DNA from: Escherichia phage 285P
Direction: 5' to 3' (one strand)
Sequence record: NC_015249.1
DNA: 39,270 nucleotides
Positions 6,106 to 13,643 of this stretch are shown here, piece after piece. The notes below the pieces were generated by a model, which was given only the letters and a program-made list of their open reading frames with translations, ran no database searches and was not told the origin of the DNA. Position 1 is the first letter of the stretch; each line of letters starts with the position of its first letter. The position numbers and the translations under genes were made by a program.

Positions 6106-6149
6106 AGTTAAACTCAAGGTCATCTACATGGTGGCCTTCATGATTAACT
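6106..6149 (+). promoter_or_regulatory. conserved RNase III-type hairpin element, copy 1 (R1.1-like)
   Basis: Seen: AGTTAAACT-CAAGGTCATC-loop-GGTGGCCTT-CATGATTAACT; inner 9-bp stem, outer AGTTAA/TTAACT stem; near-identical copies at 6623 and 13599. Confidence 0.55.
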
Positions 6150-6179
6150 GTCATTAACTACACAGAAGGAAATAACATT

Positions 6180-6329
6180 ATGCGTACCAACTTTGAACCA
6201 ACCACTAAGCGCAACAACGTAATCAATGAACACGGTGCTGAATGGCAGGAACGTAAAGACCGCATGAAGAAACGCCACAAGACACAACGTGGCAACGCTG
6301 AGAAACGTAATTGGAAGGAGGCACTCTAA
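6180..6329 (+). CDS. 1.1: gene 1.1 small basic protein
   Basis: 49 aa (MRTNFEPTTKRNNVINEHGAEWQERKDRMKKRHKTQRGNAEKRNWKEAL); basic, resembles T7 gp1.1; stop overlaps the gene 1.2 ATG. Confidence 0.6.
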   Translation: MRTNFEPTTKRNNVINEHGAEWQERKDRMKKRHKTQRGNAEKRNWKEAL

Positions 6330-6601
6330 TGGGTCGCTTATACAGTGGTAACTTAATAGCATTCAAGGATGCCATCGCTAGACTTAAAGAAGACCACGAT
6401 GCAAATGTGGTCGTTGAGACTTATCGCTATGAGGACTTCGCACAGCGTCGGGTGGTAGCCGGAGAGACACTTCGAGTGACCTTGCGGAATGGCTTAATGC
6501 TGACCGCTAAGTGTTTCGAACAGTCAGACGAAGACGTTCGCTGTAATGCACAGACTGAATGGCTCCGTAAGGTTCACAGTGACCTGAAGCACTGGAAGTA
6601 A
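6329..6601 (+). CDS. 1.2: gene 1.2 protein (host dGTPase inhibitor homolog)
   Basis: 90 aa from MGRLYSGNLIAFK...; N- and C-terminal blocks (MGRLYSGNL, DEDV, HSDLKHWK) match T7 gp1.2 as recalled. Confidence 0.8.
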   Translation: MGRLYSGNLIAFKDAIARLKEDHDANVVVETYRYEDFAQRRVVAGETLRVTLRNGLMLTAKCFEQSDEDVRCNAQTEWLRKVHSDLKHWK

Positions 6602-6621
6602 TACGACTCACTATTGCGAAA
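6599..6621 (+). promoter_or_regulatory. T7-type promoter (phi1.3-like) TAATACGACTCACTATTGCGAAA
   Basis: Seen: overlaps the gene 1.2 stop; +2 is C (weaker initiation region). Confidence 0.65.
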
Positions 6622-6622
6622 G

Positions 6623-6666
6623 AGTTAAACTAAAGGTCATCTTAATGGTGGCCTTTGTGATTAACT
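6623..6666 (+). promoter_or_regulatory. conserved RNase III-type hairpin element, copy 2 (R1.3-like)
   Basis: Seen: AGTTAAACTAAAGGTCATCTTAATGGTGGCCTTTGTGATTAACT. Confidence 0.55.
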
Positions 6667-6702
6667 TTTGATTACTTAATAACCAACAATAGGAGTTCCA
6701 TC

Positions 6703-7734
6703 ATGGAAATCACATTCAAGACTAACCCTTTTAAAGCTGTATCCTACGTTGAGTCTGCCATTAAGAAAGCACTCGACAAAGCTGGCTACCTGATTGCTGA
6801 CACTAAGCATGATGGTGTGCGTGGTAACATCGTGGTTGATAATACGGCTGACTGCCTGTGGCTGTCCCGTGTCTCTAAGACCATCCCCGCGCTTGAGCAC
6901 CTTAATGGGTTCGACCAACGCTGGGCTAATGTTCTCAAAGATGACCGCTGGATTTTCCCTGATGGCTTCATGCTGGATGGTGAACTGATGGTCAAAGGCG
7001 TAGACTTCAACACAGGGTCTGGCCTACTGAGAACCAAGTGGCTCAAGAAGACAAACTGTGGATTTGATATTGGTGGAGTAGAGCCTCTCAAGGGGAGTAA
7101 AGTAGACTTCTGCTTAGACCCTAAGAAACTTAAGGTTGTCCTGTATGCCGCTATGCCGTATCACGATATGGTAGAAGGCAAAGAGTACGGCGTTATGTCC
7201 CTCCTGATGCAAGAGCATGTGCGTTCCCTCATTCCGGTTCTTAGCGAACACTTCCCGGAAATCACTTGGGAACTATCTGAGGCCAAAGAAGTCTACGATA
7301 TGGTAGAACTTCAGGAACTCTACGAGAAAGCCCGTGCCGATGGTCATGAAGGTCTGGTCGTCAAAGACCCGCTGGAAGTCTACAAGCGCGGGAAGAAGTC
7401 TGGCTGGTGGAAGATGAAGCCTGAGAATGAAGCTGATGGTGTCATCGTTGGACTCAATTGGGGTACTCCGGGTCTGGCTAATGAAGGTAAAGTGATTGGC
7501 TTTGAGGTTCTCTTGGAGTCCGGTCGTGTAGTCTCTGCCAACAACATTAGCCAAGCGTTGATGGATGAGTTTACTGCTGCCGTCAAACATGCTGAGTCTG
7601 TGGGTATGGGTATGCCTTACACTGGCTTCGCCTGTCAGGTTGCCTACATGGAGGAAACTCCTGATGGTTCTCTGCGTCACCCTTCGTTCGTTATGTTCCG
7701 TGGTACTGAAGATAACCCAACGGAGAAGATGTAA
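6703..7734 (+). CDS. 1.3: ATP-dependent DNA ligase
   Basis: 343 aa; KxDGxR adenylation motif (DTKHDGVRGN) and extensive identity to T7 ligase as recalled (GLVVKDP, KSGWWKMKPENEADG, EGKVIGFEVLLESGR, RHPSFVMFRGTEDNP). Confidence 0.95.
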   Translation: MEITFKTNPFKAVSYVESAIKKALDKAGYLIADTKHDGVRGNIVVDNTADCLWLSRVSKTIPALEHLNGFDQRWANVLKDDRWIFPDGFMLDGELMVKGVDFNTGSGLLRTKWLKKTNCGFDIGGVEPLKGSKVDFCLDPKKLKVVLYAAMPYHDMVEGKEYGVMSLLMQEHVRSLIPVLSEHFPEITWELSEAKEVYDMVELQELYEKARADGHEGLVVKDPLEVYKRGKKSGWWKMKPENEADGVIVGLNWGTPGLANEGKVIGFEVLLESGRVVSANNISQALMDEFTAAVKHAESVGMGMPYTGFACQVAYMEETPDGSLRHPSFVMFRGTEDNPTEKM

Positions 7735-7916
7735 TGATAATCTTTGACCAAGGCATTTGGAAGGTATGGCAACACCCACACTTACAGGTATTCCACATCC
7801 TGAAGTGGTCTGAGGGAGACGACCCAGCCTCTTATGGGCGCAAGTGGGATTACTTCACACAGAAAGAGTGTAGAAGCATATCCGAGGTAAAGGCATATCT
7901 TCACGCCAACATGTAG
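7734..7916 (+). CDS. hypothetical protein (gene 1.4/1.5 position)
   Basis: 60-aa ORF overlapping the ligase stop (TAATG); no recognised homolog. Confidence 0.4.
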   Translation: MIIFDQGIWKVWQHPHLQVFHILKWSEGDDPASYGRKWDYFTQKECRSISEVKAYLHANM

Positions 7917-7923
7917 TAACACT

Positions 7924-12678: not shown

Positions 12679-12820
12679 GGACAATGATTGGTTGCTGACA
12701 ACTCAATGTAGCTGCCCTTGGGATGCACCTTGTGTGTGTCCTGAGCGTGTACAGCATGGAGACTTACTAACTCCTGAACAGGCGTACATATACGGTCATT
12801 GGGAGCCAAAGAATAAATAA
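12662..12820 (+). CDS. Cys-rich small protein (gene 4.2 position)
   Basis: 52 aa from the Met inside ORF 12398-12820 that lies beyond most of gene 4; CxCxxxxxCxC pattern; start uncertain. Confidence 0.35.
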
Positions 12821-12822
12821 AT

Positions 12823-12845
12823 CAATACAACTCACTAATGGGACA
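12823..12845 (+). promoter_or_regulatory. T7-type promoter (phi4.3-like) CAATACAACTCACTAATGGGACA
   Basis: Seen: followed by 5' hairpin GGGACA..TGTTCCC. Confidence 0.65.
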
Positions 12846-12888
12846 GACACTCTGTTCCCACTTATCAATCCACTTAAGGAGAATCACA

Positions 12889-13101
12889 ATGTTTAAATTC
12901 ATCAACACTCTTGGTAAGCTGGTAGTTAAAATGTACTTCCGTGAAGCTAAACGTCTGAACGACAAGGCACGTAAGGATGCAGAACAGGCTCAACGCTTGG
13001 CGAAACGGGCACGTCTACTGTCTGAAGATGCAAGTGCTGGCGTTACGTCTGCTGCTAAGATTGCAGCGAAAGCAACCGACCTGAACAAGTTCTTCCTGTA
13101 A
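12889..13101 (+). CDS. 4.3: gene 4.3 protein
   Basis: 70 aa (MFKFINTLGKLVVKMYFREAKRLNDKARKDA...LNKFFL), resembles T7 gp4.3 as recalled (same length). Confidence 0.7.
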   Translation: MFKFINTLGKLVVKMYFREAKRLNDKARKDAEQAQRLAKRARLLSEDASAGVTSAAKIAAKATDLNKFFL

Positions 13102-13280
13102 TGGTTACGATAACCCTTGTGCTCACTCTGATAACTGTGAGCGGACAAACAATAAGTCAAGTCCCTATCACGGCACCAAAGGCTGAGGCATACGAGATAT
13201 GCGAACAGCAAGGGCGCTCGTGGTCTAAGGACTTGATGAAGAACGGCAGGGTTTTCACTGCCAACTACAACTGTATCTAA
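13101..13280 (+). CDS. small ORF with N-terminal hydrophobic segment and two Cys (59 aa)
   Basis: Hand-translated (MVTITLVLTLITVSGQTISQ...CEQQGRS...NYNCI); start overlaps the 4.3 stop (TAATG); no obvious SD. Confidence 0.3.
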   Translation: MVTITLVLTLITVSGQTISQVPITAPKAEAYEICEQQGRSWSKDLMKNGRVFTANYNCI

Positions 13281-13294
13281 TAGGAGTACATAAC

Positions 13295-13597
13295 ATGGCT
13301 ATTAAATTCCCCGGCAACACAATCCGTCTGTCTGACACCATCGACCAGTATGCTCGTCGAGTGCACATCAACGTTCGCAATGGCAAGGTAACTCTGGTCT
13401 ACCGTTGGAAAGACCACAAGTCCACCAAGGCTCACACACAGCGTGTGACTCTGGATGATACACAGGCAGGTCGTCTGCTGGCTTCCGTTGCTGTAGCTGC
13501 TACCGTGGCTGTAGGTGAAGACAATGTTCGTCAGGTTCTGCTGGGTAAGACCGTGGAGTCTGAGGGAAACATGCTTGCGGACAAGTGTGAAGAGTAA
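13295..13597 (+). CDS. hypothetical protein (gene 4.5 position)
   Basis: 100-aa ORF with AGGAG RBS; no firm homolog recalled. Confidence 0.6.
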   Translation: MAIKFPGNTIRLSDTIDQYARRVHINVRNGKVTLVYRWKDHKSTKAHTQRVTLDDTQAGRLLASVAVAATVAVGEDNVRQVLLGKTVESEGNMLADKCEE

Positions 13598-13598
13598 G

Positions 13599-13643
13599 AG
13601 TTAAACTAAAGGTCATCTTAACGGGTGGCCTTCGTGATTAACT
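13599..13643 (+). promoter_or_regulatory. conserved RNase III-type hairpin element, copy 3 (R4.7-like)
   Basis: Seen: AGTTAAACTAAAGGTCATCTTAACGGGTGGCCTTCGTGATTAACT. Confidence 0.55.

Follow-up and report, generated by a model that had tools for sequence, protein, structure and literature searches.

Three near-identical RNA hairpins of Escherichia phage 285P as the probable RNase III sites R1.1, R1.3 and R4.7 of a T7-like Berlinvirus

RNase III processing signals in T7-like phages

The sites R1.1, R1.3 and R4.7 of phage T7 are textbook examples of the signals at which host RNase III cuts long phage transcripts into stable mRNAs. Here we consider three near-identical elements of about 45 nt in Escherichia phage 285P (sequence record NC_015249.1; the whole stretch of 39,270 nt that was analyzed is called the window below), which are very probably the R1.1, R1.3 and R4.7 processing signals of this T7-like phage, a Berlinvirus. 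Elements of this kind are already known from T7, where they were first described, and carry annotation in T3 and phiYeO3-12.

Among the T7 sites, R1.1 has been the model substrate of the Nicholson laboratory. Its RNA forms a hairpin of 60 nt whose internal loop is asymmetric (4 nt/5 nt), and cleavage at the primary site takes place both in vivo and in vitro (PMC6121014). Pertzev and Nicholson identified three boxes in the R1.1 upper stem (proximal, 4 bp; middle, 2 bp; distal, 2 bp) as positive determinants of binding and cutting by RNase III, and the sequence of the terminal loop is not strictly required (PMC1540722). With an internal loop present, the enzyme is limited to a single phosphodiester, and the hairpin left at the 3' end guards the RNA from 3'-to-5' exonucleases (PMC1540722; PMC3867540). 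T7 R4.7 is given as a site of strong cleavage (bioRxiv 10.1101/106799). The T3 sequence record carries ten stem-loops annotated as RNase III recognition sites, and no RNase III sites were among the features returned for the T7 records NC_001604 and V01146.

Comparison of the 285P elements with the sites of T7, T3 and phiYeO3-12

The three copies in 285P occupy the same slots as R1.1, R1.3 and R4.7 of T7 and T3. Relative to T7, they share the positions with respect to phi1.1, phi1.3 and phi4.7 and to genes 1.1, 1.3 and 4.7, as well as a design of two stems around a 4/5-nt internal loop. The T7 R1.1 region (ACUCAAGGUCAUUCGCAAGAGUGGCCUUUAUGAUUGAC) and window copy 1 (ACUCAAGGUCAUCUACAUGGUGGCCUUCAUGAUUAAC) have in common the internal loop and the 8-bp upper-stem block AAGGUCAU/GUGGCCUU, the latter unchanged across the three copies. 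Lower stems and terminal loops differ, however, and the overall identity of the window copies to the T7 sites is just 60-73%. Two further differences concern the set as a whole: the three T7 sites are 57-66% alike, whereas those of the window are 80-94% alike, and T7 has phi1.1A and phi1.1B on either side of R1.1, whereas the window has one promoter, upstream of R1.1.

The nearest annotated sequences are R1.1 of T3 (AJ318471, 6003-6053) and of phiYeO3-12, with 82-86% identity to all three copies over 50 nt. A blastn search with copy 2 matched 209 phage records; its match in T3 falls under "RNase III recognition site R1.1" (89.8% identity) and that in phiYeO3-12 under "putative RNase III site R1.1" (87.8%). 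T3 R1.1 (GAGAGTTAAACTTAAGGTCATCACCAACGGTGGCCTTTGTGATTAACTTTC) shares the lower stem with the window copies as well, so that the scaffold GAGUUAAACU...UGAUUAACUUU is common to T3/phiYeO3-12 R1.1 and all three 285P elements. In T3 and phiYeO3-12 this scaffold is confined to R1.1; their R1.3 and R4.7 have other lower stems (the paralogues are 65-78% alike), and their terminal loops differ from those of the window. Within the genus, PZJ0206, BA14, Kvp1, Berlin and Yepe2 carry unannotated orthologous hairpins which, position by position, are 90-100% identical to those of the window. Terminal loops vary freely, both across these orthologues and across the copies.

Sequence, fold and strand of the three copies

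An earlier note on this DNA, made from the sequence, had proposed the three-copy element and described it by a degenerate pattern. That pattern has exactly three matches in the window, at 6106-6149, 6623-6666 and 13599-13643, all on the + strand; chance expectation is 0, and none of 100 dinucleotide-preserving shuffles contained a match. A repeat search of the window recovers the same family (D8 and D10). Pairwise identities over the 44-45-nt core are 89%, 93% and 87%, in line with the conservation of about 90% that had been claimed.

Taken to the ends of the folded structure, copy 1 (R1.1) spans 6102-6153, copy 2 (R1.3) 6620-6669 and copy 3 (R4.7) 13595-13647, all on the + strand. Each assignment draws on the pattern match, the fold and a covariance model described below (61.0 bits, E 4e-13; 62.9 bits; and 64.5 bits, E 5e-14, respectively), to which synteny adds support, copy 3 following gene 4.5, and, for copy 2, blastn.

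Folded as RNA with 10-nt flanks, the + strands of copies 1, 2 and 3 reach -17.8, -21.5 and -19.0 kcal/mol (z -3.8, -5.6 and -3.5), against -11.0, -7.7 and -7.7 kcal/mol (z -0.6, -1.4 and -0.7) for the - strands, which bears out the expectation that the elements fold as RNA in the + sense only. The upper stem, AAGGUCAUC/GGUGGCCUU, is 9-10 bp long (9 bp in copy 1) and contains two G-U pairs. Below it the asymmetric internal loop places ACU(C/A) (4 nt, 5' side) opposite (C/U)(A/G)UGA (5 nt, 3' side), and then comes a lower stem with the core AGUUAA/UUAACU. The two-stem architecture with internal loop is thus as first described, but the outer AGTTAA/TTAACT stem had been drawn too short: in copies 2 and 3 the lower stem, AAGAGUUAA/UUAACUUUU, extends to 9-10 bp. 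Similarity between copies stops exactly at the boundaries of the RNA structure.

Genomic setting

The window is a near-complete T7-like genome; around the copies, a 9-kb stretch matches Enterobacter phage PZJ0206 at 98.3% identity and phage BA14 at 94%. Gene order was taken from the annotations of BA14, PZJ0206, T7 and T3 together with the list of open reading frames (ORFs) of the window; no + strand ORF of at least 40 aa in that list overlaps any of the three copies.

Copy 1 is flanked 5' by promoter phi1.1 (6076-6098, + strand, +1 at G6093; CAATACGACTCACTAATGGGAAA) and 3' by the ATG of gene 1.1 at 6180, a layout also found in T7, T3 and BA14; the distance from the phi1.1 transcript start to the R1.1 hairpin is 9 nt. 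Copy 2 lies between phi1.3 (6599-6621, + strand, +1 at G6616; TAATACGACTCACTATTGCGAAA), which overlaps the gene 1.2 stop, and the ATG of ligase gene 1.3 at 6703, with 4 nt from transcript start to hairpin. Copies 1 and 2 are direct repeats 517 bp apart that flank genes 1.1-1.2. The lower stem of copy 3 starts within the TAA stop of gene 4.5 (13595-13597), and the hairpin is followed by phi4.7 (13656-13678, + strand, +1 at G13673) and the gene 4.7 ATG at 13687. All three promoters belong to the promoter repeat family of the window; BA14 annotates phi1.1 at the homologous place, and phi1.3 and phi4.7 as well. Promoter phi4.7 is downstream of the R4.7 hairpin, and this site is carried solely by read-through transcripts of upstream promoters.

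The earlier note had placed each copy next to a phage promoter; copies 1 and 2 are just downstream of their promoters and copy 3 is upstream. All three are intergenic and lie on the transcribed strand. The proposed correspondence with R1.1, R1.3 and R4.7 in architecture and relative position agrees fully with the T7 and T3 comparisons.

Proposed processing and predicted cuts

Binding by RNase III, the exact positions of cleavage and the stabilizing effect are set out here as proposals. In polycistronic + strand transcripts each element would form a coaxially stacked helix of about 20 bp, made up of lower and upper stems of 9-10 bp each on either side of the 4/5-nt loop. The upper-stem block AAGGUCAU/GUGGCCUU would be what host RNase III recognizes, and is expected to hold the proximal, middle and distal boxes; in the window copies the boxes are assigned at the level of this block. 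Because the internal loop would admit one strand to a catalytic site, a single phosphodiester cut is expected on the 3' side of the loop, in the register CCUU-NNU^GAUUAAC.

The register can be compared with the T7 cut coordinates 5887, 6448 and 13892 for R1.1, R1.3 and R4.7, attributed to Dunn & Studier 1983. Placed on the T7 sequence, these coordinates put the cuts 3 nt after GGCCUU, at UAU^GAU, AGU^CAU and CAU^GAA; other T7 sites of the R1.1 type have the same register, except R1 and the promoter-proximal R3.8 and R13. For 285P the predicted cuts are 6141^6142 (CAU^GAU), 6658^6659 (UGU^GAU) and 13635^13636 (CGU^GAU).

After such a cut, in line with the T7 model, the upstream mRNA would retain the upper-stem hairpin as its 3' end, shielding it from 3' exonucleases, and the mRNAs of genes 1.1, 1.3 and 4.7 would start 38, 44 and 51 nt ahead of the respective ATG. 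The mRNA 5' end of genes 1.1 and 1.3 would be the same whether transcription came from host-polymerase promoters, upstream phage promoters, or phi1.1 and phi1.3 themselves. The T7 gene 0.7 kinase has been reported to stimulate RNase III (Mayer & Schweiger 1983, as cited in PMC3867540); the window encodes a gene 0.7 kinase at 1622-2719.

Covariation and alternative roles for the hairpins

Five hairpins of the window, seven T3 sites and seven T7 sites were aligned as the 19-sequence seed of a covariance model; core and internal loop are common to them. Run without filters, the model detects six window sites, every one on the + strand; the three copies, themselves part of the seed, score 61-64.5 bits with E of about 1e-13. 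IMG/VR was scanned with the pattern AAGGTC-N7-12-GTGGCCTT, which gave at least 120 stretches; among the matches listed, about 25 contigs had model-confirmed sites, and the remainder looked like chance matches. The model yields at least 81 sites, of which at least 69 are distinct, from the window, six reference genomes and the T7-like contigs of IMG/VR. Matches are confined to one strand in every source, and in PZJ0206 genes and matches are both on the - strand.

In the alignment of the 69 distinct members, standard pairs make up 94.6% of cells, and changes on both sides of a pair (compensatory changes) occur in 15 of the 18 pairs. When 3' partners were slid by 1-3 columns as controls, only 28-50% remained paired, and 0 of 500 shuffles attained the observed values. 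Pairs of the lower stem, and those at the top of the upper one, covary freely, and the AAGG/CCUU pairs are nearly invariant. So are certain unpaired loop bases, namely the U at column 11 and the U and G that flank the predicted scissile bond (99% and 90%, respectively). As judged from these alignments, sequence is conserved in addition to structure, which fits the published R1.1 upper-stem determinants; the suspicion of selection on sequence, raised first from the likeness of the three copies, agrees with the proximal, middle and distal boxes of R1.1 (PMC1540722).

These near-invariant bases also bear on the possibility that the hairpins act passively on RNA stability or translation, by blocking exonucleases, by binding RNase III without being cut, or by masking a ribosome-binding site. 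Stable folds of the kind found here would be expected of such elements. A plain stabilizer, however, would have no need for a conserved U and G at a scissile bond, and T7 R1.1, which is cut in vivo, has an identical or near-identical core and internal loop, so we regard a purely passive role as quite improbable.

Still less can be said for a role at the level of DNA, with the copies serving as conserved linker repeats at which phage genomes recombine with one another or internally, as a cruciform or as an origin, and the RNA fold incidental. The modular presence or absence of elements together with genes in Berlin, Yepe2 and Kvp1 (described below), and the direct repeats 517 bp apart around genes 1.1-1.2, are what linker repeats might leave behind. 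But on the opposite strand A-C mismatches replace the G-U pairs, compensatory changes preserve pairing in the RNA, the strand is always the sense strand, and the ends of the repeat coincide exactly with the ends of the RNA structure. Recombination could be a by-product of the repeats, yet it leaves the strand, pairing and boundary features unexplained; taken together, these make a DNA-level function very unlikely. A DNA cruciform was considered separately and rejected: single-strand DNA folds are weak on both strands (-3.3 to -7.9 kcal/mol), the - strand being the worse.

That the elements make host or phage RNA polymerase terminate or pause, as the UUUUG following copies 2 and 3 could suggest, has next to no likelihood, given that this U run is base-paired in the lower stem and not free, that a terminator scan flags the true early terminator TE at 7924-7945 and none of the three elements, that the class II pause signal ATCTGTT is absent in and near them (its seven matches in the window are all on the - strand and elsewhere), and that copies 1 and 2 stand between a promoter and its gene, where termination would be self-defeating. 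As to the class of intrinsic terminators, no copy combines a G+C-rich hairpin with an unpaired U tract.

Identification of the elements as RNase III processing signals, which we hold to be very probable, has to be set against several points that weigh on the other side. The records of the close relatives BA14, Berlin and PZJ0206 annotate no RNase III sites. An Rfam search of the whole window at gathering thresholds gave 0 matches, as did a search of 6000-6800 at E values up to 1; these sites seem to be without an Rfam family, and hence without an independent curated model. The T7 cut coordinates that set the register were checked for internal consistency only, all of them falling at CCUU-NNU^. 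The alignment used for covariation was fitted to the model itself, and the conservation of the core is inflated, because some contigs were picked by a pattern that fixes AAGGTC...GTGGCCTT.

The gain is mainly one of annotation: seven RNase III sites, with cut predictions for three of them, in a genus whose records omit such sites. This should be useful for transcript modelling, for phage engineering and for reading the ends seen in RNA-seq.

Origin of the similarity between copies

What is mildly new concerns the relation of the copies to one another. A 50-nt identity matrix was built from the sites of the window and other Berlinviruses (six compared), T3 and T7. Identity between the three positions is 76-96% in the Berlinvirus genomes (82%, 80% and 94% in the window), 65-78% in T3 and 57-66% in T7. 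All three Berlinvirus positions are 82-86% identical to T3 R1.1, against 63-72% to T3 R1.3 and 71-78% to T3 R4.7. Taken by themselves, Berlinvirus R1.3 and R4.7 are 84-86% identical to T3 R1.1, 67-72% to T3 R1.3 and 73-78% to T3 R4.7. The placement of Berlinvirus R1.1, R1.3 and R4.7 on one T3-R1.1-like scaffold suggests copying or conversion between sites.

Since lower-stem pairs covary freely across the family, the shared lower stems are better explained by common descent of the sites than by constraint. It is conceivable, though we would stop short of calling it probable, that copying or gene conversion carried a single R1.1-type cassette (GAGUUAAACU...UGAUUAACUUU, the T3 R1.1 scaffold) to the R1.3 and R4.7 positions in the Berlinvirus lineage. 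The 3' half of the internal loop has a signature for each position, CAU at R1.1, UGU at R1.3 and CGU at R4.7, in every Berlinvirus that has the site, and because these signatures are stable, any copying should predate the radiation of the genus. Gene conversion that is still ongoing was considered as the cause of the approximately 90% identity and ruled out, each position keeping its own loop signature in all those of the six compared Berlinviruses that have the site. Were the copying of a cassette true, RNase III sites would be portable units that spread within a phage genome; scaffold sharing in any case offers a small lead on the evolution of processing signals in T7-like genomes.

Sites and neighboring genes are gained or lost together. 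In Berlin and Yepe2, R1.1 and gene 1.05 are both absent. In Kvp1, R4.7 and genes 4.3-4.5 are both absent, with an HNH endonuclease gene in place of 4.3-4.5 (7560-7665). At Berlin 5125-5250 and Yepe2 410-540, phi1.1 is followed by a 5' hairpin together with ACTTTAAGATA-like repeats in an array.

A smaller likeness concerns the R4.7 terminal loop, which in the window and PZJ0206 (CUUAACGGG / CUUAACUGG) resembles the R1.3 loop (CUUAAUGG; window 13609-13632 versus 6633-6655). BA14, Berlin and Yepe2 have a cUCCGg tetraloop at R4.7 instead. With few informative positions, the resemblance could be a short conversion tract from R1.3 or a 3-nt replacement.

Further members of the family and other hairpins

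Two diverged hairpins had been singled out as related in the earlier note, at 2734-2758 and 35607-35633, and both turn out to be real members, lying within somewhat larger structures; the list was incomplete, two more sites having been missed (787-837 and 17696-17774). All four are on the + strand. The R1-position member (2722-2773) lies between kinase gene 0.7 and RNA polymerase gene 1, scores 54.4 bits and folds at -21.8 kcal/mol (z -4.4); it is identical in BA14 and PZJ0206. The R18.5-position member (35595-35646), close to T7 R18.5, scores 45.2 bits and folds at -15.7 kcal/mol (z -3.4). Upstream of gene 0.3, the R0.3-position member (787-837) is outside the model seed and scores 43.2 bits (E 2e-8), with a fold of -16.5 kcal/mol (z -3.8). 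The R6.5-type site (17696-17774; -31.8 kcal/mol, z -5.4) has phi6.5 embedded in its upper stem and loop, keeps the internal-loop layout of the family, and was missed by the covariance model because of this long insert. The annotated R6.5 of T3 and the R6.5 of T7 have the same promoter-in-stem design.

The called gene 0.3 ORF, 824-1318, has its first ATG (at 824, inside CCUUUAUGAU) within the R0.3-position hairpin. The 152 aa of BA14 gp0.3 suggest a real start of gene 0.3 near 860, 3' of the hairpin; the start of the 164-aa ORF would then be an artefact of mechanical calling. The early regions of these genomes are mosaic, with hairpins at module borders. Window positions 1-1620 have one early hairpin only, of the BA14 type; the gene 0.3 region of PZJ0206, the closest relative, has three RNase III-type hairpins (38751-38802, 39069-39121 and 39599-39658), one of them R0.5-type at 67 bits, and PZJ0206 differs from the window by extra R0.5-type sites, confirmed by the model, without counterpart there.

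A second class of transcript 5'-end structure is apparent from sequence at phage promoters of the window, at least seven of which are followed by a GGGAGA...UCUCCC-type hairpin at +1 (for example, 9051-9070 and 20362-20383). The stretches concerned are 5449-5493, 9031-9075, 10793-10837, 12820-12864, 20342-20386, 21336-21380 and 33075-33119. T3 annotates one hairpin of this class, after phi3.8, as R3.8.

Repeats of another kind are found at 33636-34067, inside a late gene that is probably tail fibre gene 17: imperfect repeats with a 21-nt period (GAGGCTAACCGTGCT-like; families D2 and D5), which look like a heptad-type protein repeat.

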